IMG/VR virus record: IMGVR_UViG_3300031949_000054
Coordinates: 1 to 51,926 of that record
DNA length: 51,926 bases
Source: a virus
Strand: one strand, 5' to 3'
The stretch's first letter is position 1, and every line of letters begins with the position of its first letter. Under the pieces are notes generated by a model. It saw only the letters and a program-made list of their open reading frames with translations, was not told where the DNA came from and searched no databases. Below, in pieces: positions 15,707-51,926 of this stretch. Position numbers and translations under genes: made by a program.

Positions 15707-16216
15707 TCAGTCGAGCGCGGTCTTCTTCGGCTTGGGGTGGGACTGCCGGCCGGCGAGCACCAGCGTGAAGGCGATGCGGCGCGCGATGTCCTTCACGTCC
15801 TGGACCTCGCCGTCCTCACCGACAACGTCCCCGGGCAGCTGCAGCTCGGCGGTTTCCTTCATCCCCAGACGCACCTTCGCCCAGAAGATCGCCGCCGCGG
15901 CGCTCGTGGCGGTGAGGCGCAGGAGGTTGCCGCCCGCCTGGATGTTCGCCTTCAGGATCCCGGTGTCGAGCTCGCGGCGGAAGTACTTTCGGAGCGTGAC
16001 CGGGGAGATCGGCCGGTGCGTCTTGGGGTTAAGGATGATGAGGACCTGTCTGTCCTCGGGGATCCCCAGGCCCGCCATCGCGGTCACCATGTTCGACTGC
16101 TCGGTGGAGGGCTTGAAGCCTCCGCCCGGTGGTCGCCCGGCGCGGCGCTTACCGTTTATCTTTGCTTGCGGTGCGGCGCTTGGCGATGACGTCGAAGCTC
16201 GCTTTTTCCTTGGCAT
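15707..16216 (-). CDS. Putative terminase small subunit
   Basis: 169-aa ORF. It has a basic N-terminus with AGRPPGG, an HTH-like MAGLGIPEDRQ..SPVTLRKYFRREL, and ..AAAAIFWAKVRLGMKE, all typical of small terminases. Confidence 0.55.
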   Translation of the reverse strand: MPRKKRASTSSPSAAPQAKINGKRRAGRPPGGGFKPSTEQSNMVTAMAGLGIPEDRQVLIILNPKTHRPISPVTLRKYFRRELDTGILKANIQAGGNLLRLTATSAAAAIFWAKVRLGMKETAELQLPGDVVGEDGEVQDVKDIARRIAFTLVLAGRQSHPKPKKTALD

Positions 16217-17642
16217 GGGTGGCGGTGCCCTTGGTGGCGTCCTGCCAGCGGCGCACGATCACGTCGGCGTACAGGGGGTCCAACTCGATCGCGTAGCAGG
16301 CGCGCCCGAGCTGTTCGGCCGCCATCAGGGTACTCCCGGAGCCGGCGAAGATGTCGAGTACGATCTCGCCCTCGAGGCTTGAGTTGGCGATCGCGCGGCG
16401 CGCAAGCTCAACAGGTTTCTGGTTGGGATGCAGGGTATTGTCCTTCCCGTAGCCGTTGTCGCGGCTCACCTCCCACAGGTCCTGGGCGCCGCCGCCGGCC
16501 TCGAGCAGAAGCGCTTGGTCTGGGGCCAGGTGTACGTGCCGGATCTTGCGGCCTTTGGGCTGGGTGCTGGTTACGTGGATCTCGCCTTCCTTGGTCGTGA
16601 TCGTCACTCCCGCGCCGATCGTCGTACGAAGGCCTGCGGCGGGGCCATGGGCGCTTACCCGCCACACGGTGGACTGATCCCTCCCTCCGTGCCAGGCGGC
16701 GCGCACGCCTTGCCTGGCAGCGTAGAAGCAGGGCTCATGGGCCCATCGGTAGTCGGCCCACCCCAGCACGATCTGGGGTTTCGCCCAGATGATGTAGGAG
16801 AGCTCCACTAAGCCGGTGTCGCGGAGGGCGGCGCTGTAGTCGTCCCGCGTTGCGCTCGCATGCCACACGTACCAGCCGGCGTCATCGGTGGTGTGCGGGA
16901 GCGCGGCGGCGAAGGCTTTCCGGAGGAGGTCCGCGAGTTGGCCGCGGCGCAGGTCGTCGCCCCGTATCATCTCGAAGTCCCCGCTCCTTGCGACATAGGA
17001 GACGCCGTAGGGCGGGTCGGTGAACACCATGTTCGCCCGACGTCCTAACGTCAGTGCCTCGAGCACGGTCTTCTTGGTTGCGTCCCCGTAGATCAGGCGG
17101 TGCGCGCCCATCAGCCAGATGTCCCCGGGCTGGGAGATCGCCTTTCGCTGCAGCGCTGGGGTTGCGGGCTCCTCCGGGTCCTGGGTCCGGGGTTCCAGGG
17201 CAAAGGCGATCTCGGGGAGGTTAAAGCCGGTCAGCTCGAGATCGAACCCCATGTCCTTCAGGGCCGAGAACTCCGCGGCGAGCAGGTCCTGGTCCCATCC
17301 GGCGTCTTCTGCTGCTCGGTTGTCGGCGAGCAGGTAGGCGCGCTTCTGGGCCGTCGAGAGGCCTGTGAGCTCGATCACGGGTACGCGCTGCATCCCGAGT
17401 TGCTTCGCCGCCTGGAGCCTGCCGTGGCCCGCCAGGATGCCGTTCTTGCCGTCGACCAGGATCGGGTTGGTCCACCCGTGCGCGCGGATCAGTTTGACGA
17501 GCTTGTCGATCTGCGCCGGGGTGTGAGTCCTGGGGTTCTTTGGGTCGGGCTTCAGGTTGCCGACATAGCGGTACTCGATCTTCAGCTGGCCGCCGTGGGC
17601 CTGCTTTTTTATAGCCGACACGTAACCGCCTCCCTGAACCAC
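16149..17642 (-). CDS. ParB-like nuclease domain fused to a beta-class DNA (N6-adenine/N4-cytosine) methyltransferase
   Basis: 497-aa ORF. ParB N-terminal motif (NPRTHTPAQIDKLVKLIRAHGWTNPILVD..GHGRLQAA), motif IV FTDPPYG, and C-terminal motif I LDIFAGSGST. Confidence 0.85.
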   Translation of the reverse strand: MVQGGGYVSAIKKQAHGGQLKIEYRYVGNLKPDPKNPRTHTPAQIDKLVKLIRAHGWTNPILVDGKNGILAGHGRLQAAKQLGMQRVPVIELTGLSTAQKRAYLLADNRAAEDAGWDQDLLAAEFSALKDMGFDLELTGFNLPEIAFALEPRTQDPEEPATPALQRKAISQPGDIWLMGAHRLIYGDATKKTVLEALTLGRRANMVFTDPPYGVSYVARSGDFEMIRGDDLRRGQLADLLRKAFAAALPHTTDDAGWYVWHASATRDDYSAALRDTGLVELSYIIWAKPQIVLGWADYRWAHEPCFYAARQGVRAAWHGGRDQSTVWRVSAHGPAAGLRTTIGAGVTITTKEGEIHVTSTQPKGRKIRHVHLAPDQALLLEAGGGAQDLWEVSRDNGYGKDNTLHPNQKPVELARRAIANSSLEGEIVLDIFAGSGSTLMAAEQLGRACYAIELDPLYADVIVRRWQDATKGTATHAKEKASFDVIAKRRTASKDKR

Positions 17643-17915: not shown

Positions 17916-18521
17916 TCATTTCTCCTTCGGTGAGGGAGGGAGCGCGGCACCGTATCGGGCTGGGGTAGCCCCGATGTCCGGTTGAGTGATTGTTACTAGA
18001 CCATCTCGTACCAAACCTTTGAGGGCGCTTCGCACTGGAGTAACCGGGATTCCGGTTGCGTAAGAAATGTCCCGTATCGTGCTGTGTTCGTTCAGCGCCT
18101 CAAGAACTTTTTGCACACGAGCAGAGCGCGTTCGTTTCTGGATTCCTACACGTGGATCAACTTTCGGCCAGGGGAGCAGTTTCTCAACGTCGCCACGGCC
18201 TGCCGCCACATCCAAAGCATCGGATACGTCATCGCTCGTCTCGAAGATGCCGAACATATCTGCCATGCAGCCGATGACTAGGTAGAGTGCAGCGCAACGC
18301 TCCTGCCATGTCCCAATCGTTTCTGGGGCCGTGTGCTCAAACTCAGCGGCATCAGCCTTAACCGGCTGCCCCGCCTCTGCGTGATCCGATAGGGCGCGAA
18401 GGGCTGCAAGAATTGCGTGCTGATCCTCGCTGCCAAGTTCGGTTGATTGGCCGTCTTCATATTGCAGAAACAGAATGCCGCTACCATCGATCTGTTCTAT
18501 TAGTCTCGTCAACTCGCTCAT
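17916..18521 (-). CDS. Hypothetical protein with a C-terminal winged-helix-like domain (low-GC insert)
   Basis: I chose the start at MSELTRL (ATG 18521), which forms an ATGA overlap with the synthase stop. The C-terminus ..VQKVLEALNEHSTIRDISYATGIPVTPVRSALKGLVRDGLV looks MarR/wHTH-like. Confidence 0.6.
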   Translation of the reverse strand: MSELTRLIEQIDGSGILFLQYEDGQSTELGSEDQHAILAALRALSDHAEAGQPVKADAAEFEHTAPETIGTWQERCAALYLVIGCMADMFGIFETSDDVSDALDVAAGRGDVEKLLPWPKVDPRVGIQKRTRSARVQKVLEALNEHSTIRDISYATGIPVTPVRSALKGLVRDGLVTITQPDIGATPARYGAALPPSPKEK

Positions 18522-19546
18522 GGCCTTCCTTTCCTCACGAGTTCCCACGTTAGCGGTTCGCCAGCCCTCACCGCCCGGTATACGCGCATCCCCATGACCA
18601 GAGGCTTGTTCTTCGGCTCCATGCCGTCCCCCGGGCGTAGCGCCCGGACGTTGTGCTCGGTCAGCGGGTCGCCCTCGGCCATGTCGTAGGCCACATGCAG
18701 GGTGCGGCGCAGAGCGAGCATCGGGCGTTCGGCTTCGCTCGGGCCGTAGCTCTCGAATCCGACAGCGTCGATCGCATCGTGCACGGCTTGCACCAGGGTC
18801 TCCATGCCGAGGGGATCAAGCGAGAAGCTCTTGTCCGGGCCGAGCGTCGTAAACTCCCCCATGTGCTTCTCGATCATGTCGGCGCCCATGATCGCGGCGG
18901 CTACAGCGGCGCCTGATCCGGGCGTGTGGTCGGAGTATCCAATTTTGCAGTCGAAATGCTGGCGCATGTTCGCCATCGTGGCGAGATTCACCTCGGCCGC
19001 TGTGGCCGGGTAGACGCTCGAGCACTTGAGCAGCGTGAGGTTGCCCTGCGTTCCGCCGGCGTGGCGATAGGCCTGGACCGCATCGTCGATCTCGGCAAGG
19101 GTGGCCATGCCGGTCGAGATGATGATCGGCTTACCGGTGAGGGTGACGCGGGTGATCAGTTCGAGGTCGAGGATCTCAAAGGAGGCGATCTTGTAGATCG
19201 GGCATCCCAGCCGCTCGAGGAAATCCACGGCTGCGGGTTCGAATGGGGTGCTGAACACAGGGATGCCGACCTTTTCGCCCTCCTTGAAGATCTGCTCATG
19301 CCAGCTCCACGGAAGCGCGCAGCGGTTGTACAGGTCCCAGAGATTCTCCCCCTTCCATGGTCCCTCTGTGAGGGTGTGCTGCACGCTCGGGTGGACCATG
19401 CTCGTGGGCTCGTAGGTCTGCAGTTTGACAGCGTCGCAGCCGGCGCGCTTGGCCGCGCGCACGATCTCCAGGGCGCGTTCCATGTGCTGGCAGTGATTCG
19501 CGCCCATCTCCGCGACAATGAACGGGTACCGCGAGGCGCGCTTCAT
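18518..19546 (-). CDS. pseI: Nonulosonic acid synthase of the NeuB/PseI/LegI family (pseudaminic acid synthase favoured by context)
   Basis: Start trimmed to MKRASRYPFIVAEMGANHCQ (ATG 19546). TIM-barrel NeuB motifs are present, plus a C-terminal SAF-like ..RALRPGDGMEP..G.RVYRAVRAGEPLTWE. Confidence 0.85.
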   Translation of the reverse strand: MKRASRYPFIVAEMGANHCQHMERALEIVRAAKRAGCDAVKLQTYEPTSMVHPSVQHTLTEGPWKGENLWDLYNRCALPWSWHEQIFKEGEKVGIPVFSTPFEPAAVDFLERLGCPIYKIASFEILDLELITRVTLTGKPIIISTGMATLAEIDDAVQAYRHAGGTQGNLTLLKCSSVYPATAAEVNLATMANMRQHFDCKIGYSDHTPGSGAAVAAAIMGADMIEKHMGEFTTLGPDKSFSLDPLGMETLVQAVHDAIDAVGFESYGPSEAERPMLALRRTLHVAYDMAEGDPLTEHNVRALRPGDGMEPKNKPLVMGMRVYRAVRAGEPLTWELVRKGRP

Positions 19547-19760
19547 GACCAAAGGCCGGCACCCGGACCCATAAGCGGGCAGGGTATCCGGGCGCCGGTT
19601 TTCTCTGGCACTACGCTGAATGGGGCTCGGCCACGAGAGCAAGGGGAGTTACCCGCAATTTCCTTCGCGCGGCTCTCTCTCGCAAGAACGGCCCGCGCCC
19701 CATGACTGGCCACGTGCAGATTGCACACGCTCGGCCCCTCGGTGTATTCCTTTTCGATCC

Positions 19761-20294
19761 TCATTGCCGCCCCAGGAGTTCAAGAGTCCGGGCCGCGTCC
19801 TCGAGGGTCGCGGTACTGAAATCGCCACTCGCGGCGGTGCGCCTGAGTTCGGCCGCGAGCGTCGGGATGTTGCGCTTGGCGACCTGGATCGTGCGCGCGA
19901 GTTCACCCGCCTGGAAGTCCTGCTCGTTGTTCTCGATCGGCTTCACGACGTGCTTGGTGCCCTGCGCGACGAGGCTCACGATCACGAAGGGTCGCGAGGG
20001 TTCGGCTGGGCTCGCCGGTACCGCGCGGCGGGTCCCCACGGCCGGGATGCCCGGGGTGGCGGGTCTGCCCTCCGGGCGGTAGACCATCGCCGCTGGGGTC
20101 ACCTTCTGGTAGGCCATGCACTGGTCAAACGCACTCAGGTCCTCCTCTCGAATCAGCACGGTCATCTCGGGGTTCTGATGGCGGGCCTTCCAGAGCAGGA
20201 GCTGCAGCACCCTGTTGGGGTCGGCCGCTGCGAAGGCGTCGAGGACGTCGACGGGCGGCGGCGTGGCTTTCGGTTTTGCTTTCGCTTTCGTCAT
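19761..20294 (-). CDS. Hypothetical protein
   Basis: 177-aa ORF. Its ATG overlaps the TGA of the GNAT gene (ATGA). Confidence 0.6.
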   Translation of the reverse strand: MTKAKAKPKATPPPVDVLDAFAAADPNRVLQLLLWKARHQNPEMTVLIREEDLSAFDQCMAYQKVTPAAMVYRPEGRPATPGIPAVGTRRAVPASPAEPSRPFVIVSLVAQGTKHVVKPIENNEQDFQAGELARTIQVAKRNIPTLAAELRRTAASGDFSTATLEDAARTLELLGRQ

Positions 20295-20752
20295 GGTCTT
20301 TCTCCTGGTGGCAGCTGGTAGGTGTGCTGAATAACGCGAGCTCCCAGCTTCAAAAAGAGCGCGTGCGAGCGGGTGTTCCCTGGGGCTACGTTCGCGAGCA
20401 GCGGTCCTGGGTGCCTCTCTCGCAGGAGAGTAACCGCCCGGAAGGCGTAGCCCTTGCGCTGGTGGGTGGCAAAGATCGCGACCGCTACCTCGTTCGCGCG
20501 GGTGAGCGCGACCGAGCCGACCCGTTCCAGTCTCTGAAGCTCGAAGAAGGCTGCTTCGTATGTTTCCGGCCTGTCCTCGATCAGGTACCAGGCTTTGTAG
20601 GGGCGGGAGGCGACGAATGCCTTGTGGGCCTCGTAGCTTGGCATCTGCCGGTGTGAGATGTTCGCCTCGGGTGGGCGCTCCTGCAGCAGCTCGTAAAGGA
20701 TCCGCCCGGCTAAGGATGGACCCACGTCGTAGACGTCTGTCAGTCTCAGCAA
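20291..20752 (-). CDS. GNAT-family N-acetyltransferase, PseH-like
   Basis: I chose the TTG start at 20752, which lies 6 nt after AAGGAG. LLRLTDV..ILYELLQERPPEANISHRQMPSYEAHKAFV..YKAWYLIE resembles the PseH-type N-terminus. The upstream part of the track ORF 20291..21034 is Arg-rich noise. Confidence 0.6.
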   Translation of the reverse strand: MLRLTDVYDVGPSLAGRILYELLQERPPEANISHRQMPSYEAHKAFVASRPYKAWYLIEDRPETYEAAFFELQRLERVGSVALTRANEVAVAIFATHQRKGYAFRAVTLLRERHPGPLLANVAPGNTRSHALFLKLGARVIQHTYQLPPGERP

Positions 20753-20934
20753 TTCGCGCTCCTTTTCCACGGGCCTGCTATCTGCCAGCACGGGCTGCAG
20801 GCCCAGATGACGCCGCGGCCGTAGCAGGCGGGTTGTCCACAGGCTCCGCATGGCCTGGGGATAACTTTCCCGTCCGGGGTGAAGCCGCCCATGTTGATCT
20901 CCTTCGCGTTGGCCGTGCCCGGGTGGTGCATCAT
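20746..20934 (-). CDS. Small Cys-rich (zinc-ribbon-like) protein
   Basis: 62 codons from MMHHPG.. (ATG 20934, ATGA overlap with the HisF-like stop). Contains CGACGQPACYG..WACSPCW. Confidence 0.4.
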   Translation of the reverse strand: MMHHPGTANAKEINMGGFTPDGKVIPRPCGACGQPACYGRGVIWACSPCWQIAGPWKRSANC

Positions 20935-21851
20935 TGGTGTCGCCCGATGAGCCCGAGAATCTCCTCCTCGGATACCTCTCCGCGCCGGTCCCACAGCATG
21001 TCGAAGACCTCCCTCGGTACCGGGGGGGCACCATGCTTCTGGGCTTCCTCCCAGACCATTTCCTTCAGGCGAGGGTCGCTCAGATCGCCGGTGATTTCCA
21101 TGGGTTCTGGGAGCCTGGTCTCGATCCCGTGTTCGGCGAGATAACGTGCGGCTTCCAGCGGGGTCTGATCGGTGAACTGGAACATGGCGCCAGCGGCTAC
21201 TGCGTCTGCGCCGGCCTCAATCGCCTCGAGCAGATGCTGGTACGTGCCGGCGCCGCCGTGAGCGATCACCGGGATGCTTACATAGTTGCTCACTGCTCGG
21301 ATTATCGGCAAATCGTAGCCTTCCATCGTGCCCTCGCGGTCGATCGATGTCAGCAGAATTTCGCCTGCGCCGTGTTGTTCCAAATACATAGCCCAACGGA
21401 CCGGCCTGCGGCGGCGCGCATATTCAGGGACGCCCTTGAACACGACAAAACCACCACGCACATCGGCGGCGGCGACAAGCGCTTGGCTGCCGACTCTATC
21501 CGCAGCCTCGCGTAAAAGATTAGGGACATGAAGAGTTGCAGCACCGATCACCACCTTGTCGGCGCCGGCGCGGAGCAGCGCTCGCACGTCGTCGACTGAC
21601 CGGATTCCTCCGCCGACAGCGAGCGGCATGAAACAGACTTCAGCGAGCTCGGCGACCAGATCCAGGTCCGGACCACGGCCTTCTGCGGTGGCGGCGACGT
21701 CCAGCAGCATGAGCTCGTCCACGCCGCGCGTCTGGTGGATGCGCACCGCTTGGGCGGCAAGGCCGACCGTTCTCCAGGAATCAAAGCGCGCGCCCTTCAC
21801 CATCTGCCGCCCTCGGCACAGGATCGTCGGGATGATGCGCTTGGAGAGCAT
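20931..21851 (-). CDS. HisF/WbuZ-like imidazole-glycerol-phosphate-synthase cyclase-subunit homolog (glycosyl amidation partner) with a ~55-aa C-terminal extension
   Basis: Start trimmed to MLSKRIIPTILCRG (ATG 21851). HisF motifs ..DELMLLDV.. and ..PLAVGGGIRSVDDVRALLRAGADKVVIG.. are present. Confidence 0.85.
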   Translation of the reverse strand: MLSKRIIPTILCRGRQMVKGARFDSWRTVGLAAQAVRIHQTRGVDELMLLDVAATAEGRGPDLDLVAELAEVCFMPLAVGGGIRSVDDVRALLRAGADKVVIGAATLHVPNLLREAADRVGSQALVAAADVRGGFVVFKGVPEYARRRRPVRWAMYLEQHGAGEILLTSIDREGTMEGYDLPIIRAVSNYVSIPVIAHGGAGTYQHLLEAIEAGADAVAAGAMFQFTDQTPLEAARYLAEHGIETRLPEPMEITGDLSDPRLKEMVWEEAQKHGAPPVPREVFDMLWDRRGEVSEEEILGLIGRHQ

Positions 21852-22093
21852 CAGCCTCTGCCTTGCGCTTGGATCACTTTCAGGATGCAGTCCGAAAGCG
21901 CCCAGGCTGGGCGCTTTCCCCACCCACGCTCTAGGCTTGGATGGTGCTGCGCTTCGTAATAATCTTGGTGAAATGGCCACCACCTTCTACGAATGCGGAA
22001 TAGCCGCATGTTGGCGTACTTCACGATCCTGTTCGCGTCGCCCTCGCGAGCCTCGTCACGCAGGTCAAGTTCCCGGCGGGTCTCGCGCGTCAC
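21851..22093 (-). CDS. Hypothetical Arg/Trp-rich 80-aa protein occupying the position where a HisH/WbuY glutaminase would be expected
   Basis: The GTG start forms a GTGA overlap with the amidotransferase stop. The stop forms a TGATG overlap with the HisF-like start. No glutaminase motif is present. Confidence 0.4.
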   Translation of the reverse strand: MTRETRRELDLRDEAREGDANRIVKYANMRLFRIRRRWWPFHQDYYEAQHHPSLERGWGKRPAWALSDCILKVIQAQGRG

Positions 22094-23196
22094 GCGAACT
22101 CCTTCAAAATGGGGCGCTTGTCGTAGGGGTGTGCGAAAAGATCCTTGTTCGTGAAGCGGGCGAGGGTATCCATCAGTTCGCCCTCGGACATCCGGATCTG
22201 CTCGAGCACCCTGGCGAGCGGGACGCCGGCATAGACATCTGGGAAGAGCCCGTCGATCTCGCGCACGTTCCGCATGGCCTCATCCCGTGAGAGCTTATTG
22301 TGGCGGATGTCCACTGAGAGTTGCGCGGCGGCCCGCCCGTAGCCGTACTTGCGGTACATCGCATGGTCGTGCAGGCCCGTCATCGCGTTGTCAAGGTTCT
22401 CCGCCGGCCACCAGTTCGCCGGGGTTGGGAGGTGCTGGCGCATGCCGGCGTCGGCCGCGGCGCGGGCGTTGCGCTCGGCGTCCCAGCGGAAGTACTGTCC
22501 CATGAAGTGGGCCTCGATCCCCGCCGCGGCGACAAAGCGCTCGTCAAGGGGGCGGTAAGGCTGCAGGTCGCGCTCGGAGAGGCTTCGTTGTCCGACCAGG
22601 TCCTGTGCTCGCAGGCCGAGAAAGCCGCCAAACTCCGTGACCCAGCGCCGCGTCATCGCGCGCGCGTCGGTCGTGCCCTGGGGGCCTCCGTAGGCTTCTT
22701 GCGGGTTTTCGCCGTACAAAACCAGTGGAATAATCATGTTTCGCGCCACCGCCCAGGGGGTGTTGAAGATGGTGGCGTGCTCGGGCCAGCTGATATCGCC
22801 CACGAGCTCCAGGCCCAGGCGGTTTAGCTTCGAGCGCACCTTCCGGTTCGGGGTGACCTCGATCGTGTCGGCGTAGCGGGCGAGGTTGTCGATGTTGAAG
22901 CGCCCGATCGGCGTCAGCATGCACGTGGAGGCAGTTACCACCAGGGGCCGGTAGCCAAGCTCGATCACCTTCAGCACCTGCCAGTGGCTGTCCTTGCCGC
23001 CTGAGCTCGCCACGATGCAGTCGTAGCCGCTCGCTGGGTTGTGCTTCTCGCGCATCAGGGTGTGGAACTCCTCCTCGCGCGCGGCCCAGTCGACGCGGCC
23101 CCTATTGGCGAAAGAGCGGCAGGCCGAGCACACCCCGTCCTCGAATGGCGTGTCGGGGCGGGCCGTAGGTATCACACAATTGCGGCAGCGGTTCAT
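22090..23196 (-). CDS. N-acetyl sugar amidotransferase (PseA/WbuX/WbpG type, PP-loop ATPase)
   Basis: 368-aa ORF. N-terminal CRNC..CSAC zinc-ribbon-like pairs, followed by the PP-loop IVASSGGKDS. Confidence 0.85.
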   Translation of the reverse strand: MNRCRNCVIPTARPDTPFEDGVCSACRSFANRGRVDWAAREEEFHTLMREKHNPASGYDCIVASSGGKDSHWQVLKVIELGYRPLVVTASTCMLTPIGRFNIDNLARYADTIEVTPNRKVRSKLNRLGLELVGDISWPEHATIFNTPWAVARNMIIPLVLYGENPQEAYGGPQGTTDARAMTRRWVTEFGGFLGLRAQDLVGQRSLSERDLQPYRPLDERFVAAAGIEAHFMGQYFRWDAERNARAAADAGMRQHLPTPANWWPAENLDNAMTGLHDHAMYRKYGYGRAAAQLSVDIRHNKLSRDEAMRNVREIDGLFPDVYAGVPLARVLEQIRMSEGELMDTLARFTNKDLFAHPYDKRPILKEFA

Positions 23197-23278
23197 TGGC
23201 TAATCCGATGGAATTCCTTTATCCCGTGCGAGAGTCTCACCCTGCGCCAGAACTCACCAGCGGCGTGTTTGCCTGCCA

Positions 23279-23845
23279 TCATGGCTTCTCCATCAACCAG
23301 TACGTGCAGCGGTCAAAGCCGTTCGCCTCGCCGGTGTGCAGGATCGTCAGCCCGAGCGCCTCATACAGCTTGCCGTACGGGCGCTTCCACAGGCGGTTCT
23401 CGTAGCCGCGGTACTCGATCATCTGCTCAACATCGGAGGCGTATTCGATCGCGACGATCCATCGTGAGCTCGCGTCGACGATCTCCCCCATAAACGCGGG
23501 AAGGTTCTCCGGGGCTACGTGGATGAGGACGCCCGCGGTGAACACGAGGTCGTACCGCCCTGGGGGCTCATCAAGCCTGCCGGTTGAAACGCCGACCAGG
23601 CCGGCGGCACGCGCCTGCTCTGCCGCCCTCGGGTTGATGTCGCACCCGTGGAGCATCGCCTTTGAAATCTCCGCGATCGCCGAGAGGTTCCAGCCCGCGT
23701 TGCACCCGACCTCGTAGACGCTCCGGGCTTCGGTGAAGCGCATGATGTCGGTCCAGAACGGGATGCGCGCGCGCCAGTCCACCCGGTTGCGCGCGGTGTA
23801 GGCGTTCCCGAACTCCCCCGCCCAGAACTCCTCCTGGGGGATCAT
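23279..23845 (-). CDS. SAM-dependent methyltransferase resembling the pseudaminic-acid-biosynthesis-associated methylase
   Basis: 188-aa ORF. Motifs seen: EEFWAGEFGNAYTARN, EVGCNAGWNL (motif I), GVLIHVAP, and IEY..IEYRGYENRLWKRPYG. Confidence 0.8.
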   Translation of the reverse strand: MIPQEEFWAGEFGNAYTARNRVDWRARIPFWTDIMRFTEARSVYEVGCNAGWNLSAIAEISKAMLHGCDINPRAAEQARAAGLVGVSTGRLDEPPGRYDLVFTAGVLIHVAPENLPAFMGEIVDASSRWIVAIEYASDVEQMIEYRGYENRLWKRPYGKLYEALGLTILHTGEANGFDRCTYWLMEKP

Positions 23846-24414
23846 CGCATTCCTTTCTCAGAACGCCGCCGCGCCTGTTGCGAGACGGACATCTTCGCTC
23901 TTGCTGAGGCTGGGAGCCTAGTACCAAGTTTAGCTGCGGCCATGCGCTTCCGGGCCTCCACGGAGAAGGTGCGCCCTTTCTGGGCCTTGGACATCCGCTC
24001 ACGAGATTCAGGCGTGACGACCCGACGCTTGAGAGCCAATTTGATCCGTTCTCTGTGCACATCAGACAGCCGTCGACCGCGTAGGGATTCCGATATCTTC
24101 GCCGCGACTGTCGGCAAGAATGGTACTGGCTTCTTTCCTCCTGGGCTTATGTTGTAGCCACGTGGGTCTAGTGTGCAAAACACAGCGATGGCGCGCGTTT
24201 CTGTCTCATCGAGATCGACTGGCTGTACGACGGCAAGCACCGTAAGGCGCGGCACCCCGTACTTTCGCCAAGCCATATAGACGGCCCCTTTCGTGCTTGC
24301 GTCGCTGGCCTTGTGGTGACGACGAAACCGTTGAAGCGCTGTCCCGACAGTCGCGCCGATATATGACTTTCCCGATGCAAAGTCTAGGCGGTACAGTTCA
24401 CCCATTTTCCCCAT
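23842..24414 (-). CDS. GIY-YIG homing endonuclease with NUMOD3-like repeats
   Basis: 190-aa ORF. LYRL..KSYIGAT (GIY-YIG), RFRRH, ETETRAI and GYNISPGG. Three C-terminal S/ARxRMSxAQKG-type repeats. GC looks lower than in the neighbouring genes. Confidence 0.85.
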   Translation of the reverse strand: MGKMGELYRLDFASGKSYIGATVGTALQRFRRHHKASDASTKGAVYMAWRKYGVPRLTVLAVVQPVDLDETETRAIAVFCTLDPRGYNISPGGKKPVPFLPTVAAKISESLRGRRLSDVHRERIKLALKRRVVTPESRERMSKAQKGRTFSVEARKRMAAAKLGTRLPASARAKMSVSQQARRRSEKGMR

Positions 24415-25120
24415 CCCTAAGCTTTATCGCAGCGTAGAGCAGTTCCGCCATCTCCCAATCGCTTACGGTGTTGATGTCCTGGCAGCGGTAGCGTGGGATC
24501 GGCACGCCGAGCGAGGCGGGACTGAAGATCGGCGCATCGCGCACGAACGACGCCGTTCTCCCCCAGTACCACTGCCCGGCGTCGTGGTAGTAGGTCGGGA
24601 GATCCTGGCTTCTTGCGTTCGCGATGGCCTCGGTAAGCGAGCCGGTGACGACCGCCCCATCTGGGCCGAGCTCGAAGGCCCGCTGCAGTTCGGCGTCGTA
24701 CGTGGTGACGGAGAAGGCGTAGACCGGGTCCCAGTCGGTGCGGGTGAGCGCCCGGAAGCCTGCCTGCAGGTCCGCGGGGGTCATCATCGGGGCGGTCGCG
24801 TAGATGCAGCAGGCGAGGTCGTAGGCGAAGTGCGGGCCGGCTGGCTTGTGGATCGCGAGCAGCGCCTCCCGCATCACCGCCTGGGTGCCGGTGTGGTCAT
24901 CGGCGAGCTCCGCGGGCCGACGGTGGACCGAGGCGCCGTAGCGCGCCGCGACCTCGGCGATCTCATCGGAGTCTGTCGAGACGAGGATGAGATCGAACAG
25001 GGCGCTCGCTTTCGCCGCCTCGATCGAGTAGGCGATGATCGGCCGACCGTGGAAGGGCTGGATGTTCTTGCCGGGGATGCGCTTGCTACCGCCCCGGGCG
25101 GGGATGATTGCGATTTTCAT
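24398..25120 (-). CDS. pseF: CMP-nonulosonate synthetase (PseF/NeuA-type cytidylyltransferase)
   Basis: 240-aa ORF. MKIAIIPARGGSKRIPGKNI and ..RRPAELADDHTGT.., as in acylneuraminate/pseudaminate cytidylyltransferases. Confidence 0.85.
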   Translation of the reverse strand: MKIAIIPARGGSKRIPGKNIQPFHGRPIIAYSIEAAKASALFDLILVSTDSDEIAEVAARYGASVHRRPAELADDHTGTQAVMREALLAIHKPAGPHFAYDLACCIYATAPMMTPADLQAGFRALTRTDWDPVYAFSVTTYDAELQRAFELGPDGAVVTGSLTEAIANARSQDLPTYYHDAGQWYWGRTASFVRDAPIFSPASLGVPIPRYRCQDINTVSDWEMAELLYAAIKLRDGENG

Positions 25121-32795: not shown

Positions 32796-33302
32796 ATGCA
32801 GTTTGAACTCGACGGGGCGAAGGTGCTCCTGGTTCACAAGAACGAGCGGCTGGAGAAGCACGGCGAGGAGGAAGTCCTGGCGTGCGATTTGGATTTCAAG
32901 TACGAGACCTCGAACGCGGTGCTCGCGGAGTTCCACCCGGATCTGCGCTCGCAGCTCTACAAGCGCCCGGAGAGCGCCCAGGGTGAGCTCACCGATGACC
33001 TGGAGCACCTTACCGCGCTTCGCGTCCCCGAGCTCGGGAGCGACTTCAAGTTCGCGGGCAGCCTGGAGCGTGCGGAGCTCGTGTTCTTCAAGGGCAAAAA
33101 GGCCCACGTGACCTTCGCTGAGGCGAAGATCCACAAGTTCTCCTTCAACCTGAAGGAGGGCGGGACGGTCATCGTCGGCTTCCAGGCGCAGGTGTACCCG
33201 GATGAGGGGCAATCCGGGAAGCTCTCCGGACTCCTGCAGGAGAAGCACTGCCTGCTGACCCTTGAGCCTGCGGAGGACTCCCAGCGCCCTTTGGCAAGCT
33301 GA
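32796..33302 (+). CDS. Hypothetical protein
   Basis: 168-aa ORF with AAGGAG upstream. No motif recognised. Confidence 0.6.
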   Translation: MQFELDGAKVLLVHKNERLEKHGEEEVLACDLDFKYETSNAVLAEFHPDLRSQLYKRPESAQGELTDDLEHLTALRVPELGSDFKFAGSLERAELVFFKGKKAHVTFAEAKIHKFSFNLKEGGTVIVGFQAQVYPDEGQSGKLSGLLQEKHCLLTLEPAEDSQRPLAS

Positions 33303-33330
33303 CCCGCGTCGTCCTGGATCCGGAGGCGGC

Positions 33331-33540
33331 GTGGCCCTTTCCCAAGAAGTAGCGGCGGTCTCGATCGAGGATCAGATCGCCTGCGTGGAGCGCGAGCTGC
33401 GGTTTCGCGAGCGGGTGTACCCGCGTTGGGTCGCCGATCATAAGCTCCTGCAGGTGACGGCGGATATCGAGATGTCGCGGATGCGAGCGGTGCTCTTGAC
33501 GCTGCAGCTCGAGCGCGTCGCCCCAGCCGGCGAGCGGTGA
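33331..33540 (+). CDS. Hypothetical protein
   Basis: GTG 33331 lies 4 nt after GGAGG. 69 aa (..CVERELRFRERVYPRWV..MRAVLLTLQ). Confidence 0.5.
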   Translation: MALSQEVAAVSIEDQIACVERELRFRERVYPRWVADHKLLQVTADIEMSRMRAVLLTLQLERVAPAGER

Positions 33541-33547
33541 TGTTCGT

Positions 33548-33811
33548 ATGACTACCGCCTATCCCCTGCAGTGGCCGCCCGGCTGGCCGCGCACGCCCTC
33601 GGATAAGCGGGAGCGCTCGCGCTTTGACACCAGTGTGTCGAAGGCGCTTGGCTTTCTCCACGAGGAGGTGCGGCGGCTCGGGGCGAAGTCCCTCGTCATC
33701 TCGAGCAACTATACCCTCGGGCCTGCTCCGGAGGATTCCGGGGTGTGTGCCTATTTCGAGTTGGGAATTATATACTTGACTCCCACAGCGGAATCAGTGG
33801 GTTATGAGTAG
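33548..33811 (+). pseudogene. 5' fragment of a J-domain protein gene, interrupted by the methyltransferase cassette
   Basis: MTTAYPLQWPPGWPRT..SGVCAYFE is followed by 16 element-encoded codons and then TAG. The frame matches the 3' fragment once the element and one TSD copy are removed. Confidence 0.7.
33763..33788. repeat. Left terminal inverted repeat GGGAATTATATACTTGACTCCCACAG
   Basis: Read directly. Its partner is at 34895-34920. Confidence 0.9.
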
Positions 33812-34907
33812 CCGAGTCATCATCGGCGACTGCCGCGCTGTGCTGCCGACATTGGAAGCCGGGAGCGTGCAAACGTGCGTCACGTCGCCGCCCTACTGGG
33901 GACTGCGCGACTACGGGCACGCCGGGCAGATCGGGCTTGAATCGACGCCAGCCGAGTACGTCGCCGAAATGGTTACCGTGTTCCGGGAAGTGCGCCGCGT
34001 GCTGCGCGATGACGGGACGCTGTGGCTGAACCTTGGCGACAGCTACGCCAGTAGCGGCGGTGCCACGCCCGGCAAGAGAAGCGAAGGGATCGGACAGGCC
34101 GAAGTAGGCGAAGGACTGCGCCGCCCGACACGCAAGGGCTCTGGACGCGCTGACGGCATTGTGACCGGAGAAAGCCCAAGGAACCGCGACGGCGCACCGC
34201 CTTGCGATCTGCCTGCGAAGAACCTTGTTGGCATCCCGTGGCGCGTGGCCTTCGCCCTGCAAGCGGACGGCTGGTATCTCCGGCAGGACATCATCTGGGC
34301 GAAGCCGAACCCGATGCCGGAGAGCGTGCGCGACCGCTGCACGAAGTCGCACGAGTACCTGTTCCTGCTGGCGAAGTCGGAGCGGTATTACTTCGATCAG
34401 GACGCCATCCTTGAGCCCGTAGCGGCTGCCAGCGTGGCGCGGCTGTCTCAACCCACGCTAGGCGAGCAAGAGGGCTCTGACCGCGTTCCTGGCAAGACCA
34501 ACGGCAACATGAAAGCCGTGTCGCGCAGCGGGAACAAGGAACGGAAACCGGCGCGCGCGCGCGGGGTGCCCGTGGACACGAACGGCGAGACGAATGGAGC
34601 CGTTGCAGGGTCGGTCCCGTGGGAAGGCTCGGAGCGCAACAAGCGCAGCGTCTGGACCGTCACCACCCAGCCGTTCAAGGGAGCCCACTTCGCCACCTTC
34701 CCGCCCGCGCTGATCGAGCCCTGCATCTTGGCAGGCAGCAAGCCCGGCGACATCGTGCTTGACCCGTTTGGGGGCAGCGGCACTACAGGGCAAGTGAGCG
34801 AGGCGCTAGGCAGGAAGTGGCTGTTGATCGAACTGAACGGCGAATACGCGAATCTGTGCGCCGACCGAACCCGGCAGACCGGCATGGAGCTGGCCTGTGG
34901 GAGTTAA
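33804..34907 (+). CDS. Beta-class DNA methyltransferase, SPPY type (N4-cytosine suggested)
   Basis: 367-aa ORF. Motif IV VTSPPYWGLRDY near the N-terminus, IIWAKPNPMPES, and motif I LDPFGGSGTT near the C-terminus. The stop lies inside the right IR. Confidence 0.9.
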   Translation: MSSRVIIGDCRAVLPTLEAGSVQTCVTSPPYWGLRDYGHAGQIGLESTPAEYVAEMVTVFREVRRVLRDDGTLWLNLGDSYASSGGATPGKRSEGIGQAEVGEGLRRPTRKGSGRADGIVTGESPRNRDGAPPCDLPAKNLVGIPWRVAFALQADGWYLRQDIIWAKPNPMPESVRDRCTKSHEYLFLLAKSERYYFDQDAILEPVAAASVARLSQPTLGEQEGSDRVPGKTNGNMKAVSRSGNKERKPARARGVPVDTNGETNGAVAGSVPWEGSERNKRSVWTVTTQPFKGAHFATFPPALIEPCILAGSKPGDIVLDPFGGSGTTGQVSEALGRKWLLIELNGEYANLCADRTRQTGMELACGS

Positions 34908-34920
34908 GTATATAAGTCCC
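34895..34920. repeat. Right terminal inverted repeat (reverse complement GGGACTTATATACTTAACTCCCACAG)
   Basis: Read directly. It has 2 mismatches to the left IR. Confidence 0.9.
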
Positions 34921-35268
34921 TTCGAGTTCGGGGGTTTGCGCGCGGCGATGCCCTGCGATCGCTGGACCAAGGTAGAGGATAACCTGCACTCCATCGCGAA
35001 GACGATCGAGGCGATGCGCGGCATTGAGCGCTGGGGCGCGAAGAACATGATCAAGGCGGCGTTCACCGGGTTTGTGGCGCTGCCGGCGGCCTCCAGACGC
35101 CACTGGCGCGAGGTGCTGGGCGTGACCGACGGGCAGGGATCGAGCCTCGAGTCGGCCTACAAGCGGCTGCGTTCCAAGCATCACCCTGACAAGGGTGGGA
35201 CGTCGGAGCGTTTCAACGAGGTCCAGGTCGCCTACGATCAAGCGCGCGCCGAGCTCGGAATCCCGTGA
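34897..35268 (+). pseudogene. 3' fragment of the interrupted gene, encoding the J domain (HPD motif); possibly still translated from a GTG inside the right IR
   Basis: ..FEFGGLRAAMPCDRW.. then LESAYKRLRSKHHPDKGGTSERFNEVQVAYDQA (J-domain helices II-III with HPD). GGAG lies 7 nt upstream of GTG 34897. Confidence 0.7.
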
Positions 35269-35411
35269 AGGATCCTACTCCGCGCTGGATGTGGCACCTG
35301 TGGGGCGTGGCCGGGGTGTTCGTCGCGCTCAACGGCAGATCGATTGTGCTCGGGGTCGTGCTCGTCGCGATCGCTGCCCTGGCGCTCGTGCTCAATGACT
35401 CCGATGGCTGA
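35265..35411 (+). CDS. Small two-helix membrane protein (48 aa)
   Basis: Below the ORF-track cutoff. GTG 35265 forms a GTGA overlap with the previous stop, and the stop overlaps the next ATG (ATGGCTGA). Translation: VKDPTPRWMWHLWGVAGVFVALNGRSIVLGVVLVAIAALALVLNDSDG. Confidence 0.35.
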   Translation: MKDPTPRWMWHLWGVAGVFVALNGRSIVLGVVLVAIAALALVLNDSDG

Positions 35412-36255
35412 GACGACCGGCATCGCCTGGACACGCTCGACGTTCAACCCGTGGATCGGCTGCACGAAGGTCGGACCTGGGTGCGACCACTGCTACGCCG
35501 AGACGCTGGATGCTCGCCACAAGTGGGGCGGGGTCGTGCATTGGGGTGCTGGCGTGTCGCGCTACCGCACGAGCGAGCACGCTTGGAAGCAACCGCTCGC
35601 GTGGGAGAAGAAGGCCGCGGCCGGCGACAAGCCCTGGCGCGTCTTCTGCGCTTCGCTCGCCGATGTGTTCGATAACGAAGTGCCGGAGGGTTGGCGTTTA
35701 GACCTTTACCACCTGATCGAGCGCACGCCGAATCTATCGTGGCTGCTCGTCACTAAGCGCATCGGGAATGTGGAGCGCATGGTGAAAGATTCGTGGTTCG
35801 GACACTACGGTTTCCCGCAGAACGTCCGCCTGCTCATCACCGTCTGCGACCAGGAGGAGGCCGACCGTGACATCCCGAAGCTGCTCGCGCTGCCGTGCAA
35901 GAACGGAGTTTCGTATGAACCTGCTTTGGGTCCAATCGATTGGTTGATCGCCATGAGCGGCGGCTGCGACAAGCACGGATACCGAAAGCCCCTACTCACA
36001 GATCGCAAGCTCGACTGGATCATCGTCGGCGGCGAGAGCACCCAGGGCGCAGGGAAGGCGCGGCCGTTCGTGTTGGGATGGGGTAAAGACACGATTCGCC
36101 AATGCCGCGCGGCTTCGGTGCCTGTGTTTTTCAAACAAGCCGGCAGCAACGCGACGAACCGGGAAGGCGTGCCACATCCGTTCAAGGATAGGGCCGGTGC
36201 AGATCCTTCTGAATGGCCGGATGAACTCCGAGCCCAAGAGTTTCCCGATGCGTGA
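35404..36255 (+). CDS. Phage Gp37/Gp68 family protein (DUF5131-like)
   Basis: Start at MAETTGIAWTRSTFNPWIGCTKVGPGCDHCYAE, the characteristic N-terminus of this family. 283 aa. Confidence 0.7.
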   Translation: MAETTGIAWTRSTFNPWIGCTKVGPGCDHCYAETLDARHKWGGVVHWGAGVSRYRTSEHAWKQPLAWEKKAAAGDKPWRVFCASLADVFDNEVPEGWRLDLYHLIERTPNLSWLLVTKRIGNVERMVKDSWFGHYGFPQNVRLLITVCDQEEADRDIPKLLALPCKNGVSYEPALGPIDWLIAMSGGCDKHGYRKPLLTDRKLDWIIVGGESTQGAGKARPFVLGWGKDTIRQCRAASVPVFFKQAGSNATNREGVPHPFKDRAGADPSEWPDELRAQEFPDA

Positions 36256-51355: not shown

Positions 51356-51926
51356 GGCAGGCCCCGCCTTTTGCGATATTCCTCGATCGTTTCACCGGGT
51401 CGGCGCGCGGCGTCCTTTGCTGCGGGGGCCGCAGGTGTAGTTGTGGCCGGCGCTCCGGGTATGGCGGGCGCCGGTGGGCGTGTAGCGGACTGCTGGCGCA
51501 AGGACTCGGCCATGCCGCGGATCTGCTCATCCAAGGAGCGCTTGAAGGCTGGCACCTTCTTCCCGAGGTAGTCGGGGTGCTTATAGTTGTATAGATCGTA
51601 GGCGTCCTTCCCTGGTGTCGATGTATAGATGCGTTCCTGCTCCTGGGCATACTGCCAGAATCGGAAATTGTCCTCTCCGCCCTTCTCATCGACCGTGAGG
51701 AAGGTGCTCTTGTCGAACTGCGGCTTCATGGCGTTGTAGAAGCGCGTGCGGACGTCCGACAGGCGCTGCCCTTCAGGGGTCTCGCGCCTGTCCAGTTCAT
51801 TCTTCAGCCAGTCGTAACCGGTGGATCCAATGGCGGGAAAGTATGGGACGAGTTGGCCAACGGTCCTGATCTTGCGCGGGTCGTCATCCGGGAGATGAAC
51901 CCTGGCGAAAAGGTCGGCCACCACCA
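51352..51926 (-). CDS. 3' part of the wrap-around CDS whose start is at 1415 (51800-51926 duplicates 1-127)
   Basis: Track ORF 51352..51924 is in frame with the minus-strand ORF that leaves the window at base 1. Its stop overlaps the start of the giant gene (ATGA). Confidence 0.75.
   Translation of the reverse strand, partial: VVADLFARVHLPDDDPRKIRTVGQLVPYFPAIGSTGYDWLKNELDRRETPEGQRLSDVRTRFYNAMKPQFDKSTFLTVDEKGGEDNFRFWQYAQEQERIYTSTPGKDAYDLYNYKHPDYLGKKVPAFKRSLDEQIRGMAESLRQQSATRPPAPAIPGAPATTTPAAPAAKDAARRPGETIEEYRKRRGLP
51800..51926. repeat. Terminal direct repeat, copy 2 (identical to 1..127)
   Basis: Read directly. Confidence 0.95.

Follow-up and report, generated by a model that had tools for sequence, protein, structure and literature searches.

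A DNA methyltransferase gene between IS1595-type ends in a phage genome: a probable mobile insertion cassette

How does a DNA methyltransferase gene come to lie, between two short inverted repeats, in the middle of a phage gene? Orphan methyltransferases are a main counter-measure of phages against restriction-modification, and their gain and exchange are mostly put down to a vague 'recombination'. The question is raised by IMG/VR virus record IMGVR_UViG_3300031949_000054, the whole of which (51,926 nt) is referred to here as the window. At 33763-34920 it contains an element that interrupts a J-domain gene and carries a methyltransferase gene; a preliminary description had taken this element for a transposase-less cassette left behind by DDE-type transposition. 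We consider it very probable that the element descends from an IS1595-family insertion sequence (IS) and is non-autonomous, in other words a mobile insertion cassette (MIC), in which the methyltransferase gene stands in place of the transposase gene and which would be moved in trans. It is apparently one of about 40 cassettes moving different methyltransferase genes between phage genomes, a family that seems not to have been described before.

The two terminal repeats, termed here IRL and IRR (left and right inverted repeat; Table 1), are complementary at 24 of 26 positions (92%), and a repeat search finds no longer inverted pair within 33000-35700. At up to three mismatches the terminal repeat occurs at two places only in the 51.9-kb window, and it occurs in 0/100 dinucleotide-preserving shuffles. 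Each repeat is directly abutted by a perfect copy of the octamer TTCGAGTT, which is found three times in the window, the remaining copy lying elsewhere; a full 8/8 match at one given position would arise by chance with a probability of ~1.5e-5. The repeats have a G+C content of 42%, as against 64.8% for the cargo gene and 64.9% for the window. When the transposase of an IS1595 element (that of the viral locus L012, described below) was used as a tblastn query against the window, with E values up to 10, only noise was returned, and the Pfam families listed for the window's other open reading frames (ORFs), 25 of the 27 matched, were equally devoid of transposases. In all these respects, namely a unique pair of terminal repeats, a flanking 8-bp direct repeat, AT-rich ends in a GC-rich context and the absence of a transposase, the preliminary description is borne out.

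Since the window lacks a transposase, the element is non-autonomous and by definition a MIC from an IS1595-type element, not an IS proper. Members of the IS1595 family encode their own transposase (Zn-ribbon plus DDE), which this element does not; what lies between its IS-type repeats, themselves bounded by a duplication, is one passenger gene unrelated to transposition. Nor is it a miniature inverted-repeat transposable element (MITE), a class of non-coding elements below about 500 bp, for it measures 1158 bp and contains an intact ORF of 367 amino acids.

That ORF is the only one between the repeats with a family match. It matches the PF01555 model (N6_N4_Mtase) with E = 4e-51 and 174 bits (cut-off 26.7), over model positions 1-218 of 221. 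In the translation SPPY (residues 28-31) comes first and FGGSGTT (residues 320-326) second, which is the beta-class order, and the stop codon (34905-34907) falls inside the right repeat, all as first described. Its nearest solved relatives include CcrM and M.MboIIA (adenine), a putative modification methylase (2zie), and 8s9m and M.PvuII (N4-cytosine); SPPY is a hint that the product may be N4-methylcytosine (m4C). BLAST searches with the element against cultured phages and PLSDB plasmids returned distant methyltransferase homology only (<=79%) and no repeats.

Table 1. Positions in the window of the element's ends, adaptor and cargo and of the two parts of the interrupted gene
Feature	Position	Strand	Remarks
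IRL	33763-33788	+	GGGAATTATATACTTGACTCCCACAG; first 22 nt are the core common to IS1595-family elements
IRR	34895-34920	-	reverse complement is GGGACTTATATACTTAACTCCCACAG; holds the cargo stop codon
Target-site duplication, left copy	33755-33762		TTCGAGTT; adjoins IRL; single at the homologous position of L136
Target-site duplication, right copy	34921-34928		TTCGAGTT; adjoins IRR
Subterminal adaptor	33789..33814	+	CGGAATCAGTGGGTTATGAGTAGCCG; contains the cargo ATG at element position 42
Cargo, beta-class N6/N4 DNA methyltransferase	33804..34907	+	PF01555; 367 amino acids, intact
5' fragment of J-domain gene	33548..33762	+	72 codons; from the ORF list
3' fragment with J-domain (HPD motif)	34921..35268	+	PF00226; from alignment with L136 and L137

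Where do these ends come from? A scan of IMG/VR for the repeat core identified 14 loci. Several are complete elements, 421-1069 bp long, whose A/T-rich target sites are perfectly duplicated over 8 bp. One viral element among them (L012, whose whole contig is L181) is 1602 bp long and has the repeat GGGATTTATATACTTGACTCCCACGA, the duplication TTACATAT, two small ORFs and an IS1595-family transposase matching PF12762 (5e-34) and PF12760. A second scan, with GGGANTTATATACTTNACTCC and one genome per species, gave at least 120 loci; those listed span Alpha-, Beta-, Gamma- and Deltaproteobacteria, Acidobacteriota, Planctomycetota, Patescibacteria, Dehalococcoidia and others. At least 38 of the genome elements are 400 bp or longer (up to 3.8 kb) and have an exact or 7/8 copy of the 8-bp duplication, and at least 17 of these 38 contain a transposase. 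The genome-element transposases are 58-72% identical to that of L012, and the one representative tested for family matched PF12762 (9e-44) as well as PF12760. Elements of 1457 bp are present in multiple copies at differing sites within one genome, which indicates that the family is active.

A profile built from these transposases retrieved 357 IMG/VR viral stretches encoding relatives. We examined 80 of them (L181-L260), and in most the transposase is bounded by the repeat core and by perfect 8-bp duplications. Both ends of the transposase-bearing loci L093, L101, L087, L116, L117 and L202, among others, show the 22-nt core GGGAATTATATACTTGACTCCC in identical form. An 8-bp duplication is usual in the IS1595 family, the transposases of which have a Zn-finger and a DDE_Tnp_IS1595 domain (PMC8101967). 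Because the ends are the same as those of elements with IS1595 transposases, we read the window element as a non-autonomous IS1595 derivative. The further copies of the repeat and the cognate transposase for which the preliminary description had proposed a search are therefore both to hand, the former in large numbers in viral, genome and metagenome sets and the latter between the same repeats.

The duplications themselves follow a pattern. With all sets pooled, perfect 8/8 duplications accompany 116 of 160 repeat pairs and average 84% A+T; positions 2 and 7 are A/T in ~99% of cases and the consensus is N-W-W-N-N-W-W-N. The window's own TTCGAGTT fits the A/T rule at positions 2 and 7 and belongs to the 9.7% most A/T-rich octamers of a 65% G+C genome. 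The ISNwi1 group is reported (ISfinder; Siguier et al. 2009) to have ends of the form 'GGnnATTAT' and an 8-bp duplication; the match to GGGAATTAT is a lead only.

Could the element nevertheless move without an IS1595 transposase, the cargo or an unrecognised phage protein catalysing the reaction? That the window has no transposase would fit such autonomy, and Furuta et al. (2010) left open whether restriction-modification products might act as transposase (PMC2853133). We regard this as very improbable. The same core and 8-bp duplication surround IS1595 transposase genes in ~90 of the loci examined, and cargos belonging to PF01555, PF02086 and PF00145 have the same ends; with three unrelated methyltransferase families between them, the cargo cannot be the common recombinase.

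Several other kinds of element share these ends. The complete viral transposase elements are mostly 1.45-2.9 kb long, exceeding a bare IS, and contain diverse small phage-like passenger ORFs along with a PAPS-reductase-like gene and a few methyltransferases. At L015, L031, L034, L066, L072, L074, L091, L099, L111 and L121 the repeats and their 8-bp duplications belong to non-coding MITEs 107-160 bp long, and some metagenome-assembled genomes of Alphaproteobacteria (OZ246977.1, OZ252220.1) hold several MITE copies each. The transposase-bearing genome relatives L024, L088, L084, L127 and L133 carry modification or restriction-modification-like modules. Examples are a PF01555 methylase with a 219-amino-acid partner of unknown kind, a C5 methylase with a 220-amino-acid partner, a methylase-HNH fusion with a P63C protein, and N6_Mtase-specificity fusions of 809-863 amino acids. 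In L133 a methylase of 863 amino acids accompanies the transposase, and L018 has a homologous methylase of 809 amino acids and no transposase. One apparent ORF group ('cluster 1') was discarded as an artefact of greedy ORF picking in G+C-rich elements, being the antisense shadow of the transposase gene (as in the antisense ORF of L012).

What, then, did the element interrupt? In silico removal of the element together with one TTCGAGTT yields a single ORF of 184 amino acids (..GVCAYFEFGGLRAAMPCDRW..), in line with the in-frame fusion given in the preliminary description, and the restored protein has a C-terminal J-domain (PF00226 at residues 133-175). It has more than 2000 homologues of 183-200 amino acids, with 95-100% of the length covered and a best identity of 87%. 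As these homologues are uninterrupted, the flanks are two halves of one conserved gene, and not the two separately conserved genes that would have told against an insertion. The phrase 'inserted in frame' holds only in part: clean excision restores the frame, but the insertion adds 1166 nt, which is no multiple of 3, and the truncated host ORF, 87 amino acids in total, crosses IRL and ends within the element at the TAG of 33809-33811.

Two relatives of the phage are informative here. L136, which encodes the best homologue, is syntenic upstream, and its homologous position reads GCCTATTTCGAGTTCGACGG, with one TTCGAGTT and no element, so that the empty-site allele that had been sought does exist. 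L137, likewise syntenic, has an intact J-domain gene and, ~600 bp downstream, an orthologous cassette (1062 bp) that is bounded by the same repeats and has an 8-bp duplication of its own, CTTCCTAT. The ends of the L137 and window cassettes have ~93% nucleotide identity and their methyltransferases are 70% identical, the middle of the protein being different; this middle is presumably the specificity region. The two cassettes are independent insertions in related phages.

These comparisons also bear on the possibility that homologous or illegitimate recombination, or a chimeric assembly, produced the arrangement, the repeats and the duplication being coincidental. Recombination between elements does occur, as shown by the 44 of 160 repeat pairs that have no matching duplications, and the methyltransferase is mosaic relative to that of L137, with conserved ends and a divergent middle. 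As an account of the insertion itself we nonetheless find it exceedingly improbable, given that the repeats have a chance expectation of zero and the 8/8 duplication corresponds to the single copy at the L136 empty site. Chance repeats and an assembly artefact were dismissed on the same grounds, together with the presence of the contig in independent assemblies (an ENA record of 51,940 bp and a JGI record of 51,926 bp).

The reading of the element as a transposase-less IS1595 derivative is extended by a set of sister cassettes. Beyond the repeat, the left end of the window element continues as CGGAATCAGTGGGTTATGAGTAGCC, and a scan of metagenome contigs with this leader found 41 loci. Pooled, the metagenome and viral loci provide 40 distinct left junctions, across which conservation within element positions 1-52 falls below 90% in four columns only; the ORF starts at position 42 in every member with enough sequence. 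Cargos with at least 40 readable residues number 38, and all 38 fall into eight sequence clusters, the representative of each of which (one per cluster was tested for family) is a DNA methyltransferase of PF01555, PF02086 or PF00145. The D12/Dam-type cluster (PF02086) has 13 members and the window-type cluster (PF01555) ten, followed by two further PF01555 clusters of small (~210 amino acids, n=6) and large (~390 amino acids, n=5) enzymes; the four singletons comprise three PF01555 enzymes and a C5-cytosine enzyme (PF00145, 1e-42). All ten window-type cassettes have differing flanks. Where sister cassettes lie on longer contigs, phage genes for primase, helicase and exonuclease are found nearby. 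Two more viral elements, with another subterminal region, carry respectively a T1-Dam-like gene, whose weak PF05869 match falls slightly short of the curated threshold, and a gene for a 118-amino-acid protein without a family match.

The sister cassettes are pertinent to a further alternative, namely that an IS1595 element with both a transposase and a methyltransferase gene inserted into the J-domain gene and later lost the transposase gene in place, leaving an immobile relic. Elements combining a transposase with methyltransferase or restriction-modification genes exist, as in the five genome relatives listed above, and L133 and L018 make up a pair with and without the transposase. We think a relic unlikely all the same. 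An identical 52-nt adaptor, with its ATG at 42, recurs at 40 junctions, many of them with perfect duplications of their own, and this adaptor is found in 0/200 genome or transposase-bearing viral loci; repeated, identical deletions in place are implausible. The orthologous cassette of the close relative L137, moreover, occupies a different site.

The sister cassettes hint at something broader. Several unrelated cargos have their first 3-4 codons in common (MNSP / MSSP), and D12-type and small beta-type cargos share a C-terminal tail, ..Q(E/A)R(L/M)FA, which suggests that cores may have been swapped inside a pre-existing cassette frame. We therefore put forward, tentatively and with slightly less than even confidence, a 'methyltransferase plug-in': an IS1595-derived frame, consisting of the 52-nt left adaptor, the right repeat and in several types the C-terminal tail ..QERLFA, would move interchangeable methyltransferase genes (at least eight cargo clusters from three unrelated families) among phages, with shuffling of specificity regions and tandem arrays at hot spots such as L171. 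If true, this would resemble integron cassettes for anti-restriction genes, driven by transposases that are common in viral contigs.

Two observations on individual cassettes may be recorded beside this. At L171 (121-1985), a 763-bp and a 1086-bp cassette with different methyltransferases are arranged head to tail, with TTTTTTAT before, between and after them, which points to more than one insertion into the same target or into the duplication made by the first. The D12-type cargo occurs in versions of 300, 316, 332 and 348 amino acids (L005, L006, L146, L164, L165, L166) that differ solely in the number of copies of a 48-bp tandem repeat (16 amino acids, IPHASDAGxGVQAIGx) in the middle of the methyltransferase.

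How would a gene brought in by such a cassette be expressed? A scan of 33300-35400 revealed neither a sigma-70-like promoter nor a cassette-associated terminator. Three stop codons lie at the left end: a TGA in the cargo frame at element positions 15-17 (within IRL), a second TGA at 43-45 (in an ATGA overlap) and a TAG at 47-49. Whichever frame comes in, it meets one of them no more than 27 nt from the cargo ATG; for the host frame in the window this is the TAG of ATGAGTAG. As there is no promoter-like site and all incoming frames are stopped close to the ATG, the cargo is probably expressed by read-through transcription from the target gene with termination-reinitiation. The stops fit this without proving it, as does the orientation of the flanking coding strand: by a crude ORF-based score (G+C at third minus second codon positions, GC3-GC2), 18 of 21 confident calls place it on the strand of the cassette. 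Simple 3-periodic G+C strand calling was dropped, having mis-called the window's own flanks.

At the right repeat two frames are closed and the third is open, starting with GTG 34897, the very codon from which the gene caller of the source assembly begins a downstream ORF of 123 amino acids. The 3' J-domain fragment may thus be re-initiated from GTG 34897; that the open frame is in phase with the fragment here is a one-in-three coincidence. The cargo start (33800-33816, and likewise in sister cassettes) also forms a conserved imperfect palindrome, GGGTTATGARTAGCCC. Of three cassettes folded, two gave a small hairpin enclosing the AUG; the z-scores, from -1.0 to -2.9, are too weak to build on.

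In the mechanism that we propose, an IS1595-type DDE transposase supplied by the host chromosome, a prophage or a co-infecting phage would bind the 22-26-nt ends and move the cassette in trans. Indirect support comes from the 40 insertion junctions of the transposase-less form, from the other site of the orthologous cassette in L137 and from the empty site of L136. The insertion itself is shown: the cassette entered an A/T-containing 8-bp site of the conserved J-domain gene, duplicating it. Its methyltransferase would then modify phage DNA and so protect it from host restriction, and such protection would explain both why phages keep these insertions and why a methyltransferase-only subfamily exists. 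The original proposal of a transposase-less cassette of DDE type gains its support from the copies of the repeat, the IS1595 transposases found at the same ends, the empty site of L136 and the single conserved host gene.

A number of points weigh against this interpretation. The trans-acting transposase is inferred from the ends: the window encodes none, and there is no transposase or integrase family among 25 listed of the 27 Pfam families matched, with 41 other window ORFs covered. The chemistry of IS1595 transposition is not known to have been worked out by experiment. The repeat pairs without matching 8-bp flanks (e.g. L011, L143, L156, L159) suggest recombination between elements or rearrangements adjacent to them. 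No near-identical copy of the window cassette was found elsewhere, the best match being ~93% over the first 300 nt, and recent movement of this copy would go beyond what such matches show. The activity of the methyltransferase at a defined motif and its protective effect are putative. Since many members of the subfamily are on short metagenome contigs, their phage origin rests on a few longer examples. Finally, the method used for orientation is crude, and flanks that neighbour one another do not count as independent.

If the interpretation is right, the cassette would provide a concrete vehicle for methyltransferase exchange, with no requirement beyond a trans-acting transposase and an 8-bp target that contains A/T. 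By virtue of its own translational coupling signals, a promoter-less gene could be expressed in whatever transcribed gene it enters. The 357 IMG/VR stretches indicate that IS1595-group elements, usually with passengers, are frequent in viral contigs, contrary to the common view of phages as IS-poor, and the conserved 22-nt repeat offers a search handle for anti-restriction cargo and possibly for other phage accessory genes.

As for the phage itself, the window is a complete genome of ~51.8 kb, with genes for TerL, a head-tail adaptor, a tail protein and a GH19 endolysin. Positions 1-127 are identical to 51800-51926, which suggests either a circularly closed assembly or a terminally redundant complete genome. 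The nearest cultured terminases, those of Acidovorax and Bordetella podoviruses, are 37-39% identical, and the cassette is located in the early/replication module. At 16149-17642 on the minus strand the phage encodes another DNA methyltransferase, a resident one whose N-terminal domain is ParB-like and which matches phrog_498 (9e-137) and phrog_620. It is not flanked by the repeats; together with the cassette cargo, it gives the phage two methyltransferases. Also on the minus strand, at 18518-25120, is a cluster resembling those for nonulosonic (sialic-like) acid biosynthesis, its members being NeuB with SAF (7e-77), a HisF-like protein (3e-56), an S-adenosylmethionine (SAM) methyltransferase and a CMP-type cytidylyltransferase (3e-27).

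IS1595 members with passenger genes, which ISfinder lists, and MICs are both established kinds of element; examples of the latter are the MIC231 type of Bacillus cereus and the qnrD cassettes found on Proteeae plasmids. Like the IS1595 insertion sequences, the window element has repeats starting GGG..TTAT, 8-bp duplications and the core that flanks PF12760 + PF12762 transposases, and passenger genes are frequent in the transposase-bearing relatives; unlike them, it has no transposase at all. With MICs it shares IS-type repeats, a duplication, the lack of a transposase, one unrelated passenger and presumed trans-mobilisation by a parent IS. It differs in its parent (IS1595 as opposed to IS231/IS4), in its location in a phage and in having a DNA methyltransferase as cargo, and the family to which it belongs adds a conserved 52-nt expression adaptor in front of at least eight different methyltransferase genes. 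Morons are defined by a promoter and terminator of their own. The cassette resembles them, and phage orphan methyltransferases, in adding a single accessory gene that plausibly protects against restriction, whereas it lacks a promoter or terminator and possesses transposon ends and a duplication.

A precedent for methylase genes in such a setting comes from bacterial chromosomes, where Furuta, Abe and Kobayashi (2010) described restriction-modification and orphan-methylase units with imperfect inverted repeats, 8-bp duplications and no transposase (PMC2853133). In their study the duplication matches the empty site in a relative, the repeats are long (e.g. 60/65) and reported to be unique to each unit, and a trans-acting transposase was proposed without assignment to a family (PMC2853133). 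The window element is alike in having a methylase gene between imperfect repeats, an 8-bp duplication, an empty site and no internal transposase; it differs in residing in a phage and in having, instead of long unit-specific repeats, ends of 26 nt that are common to hundreds of loci and tied to IS1595. In view of this precedent the concept is not wholly new. In the literature searched, mostly without subscription journals, there was no description of IS1595-derived methyltransferase cassettes in phages or of a common adaptor, an absence that is no proof. The kind of element is thus known; what appears to be new is a recurrent family of such elements, dedicated to methyltransferases, in viral and phage-like contigs.

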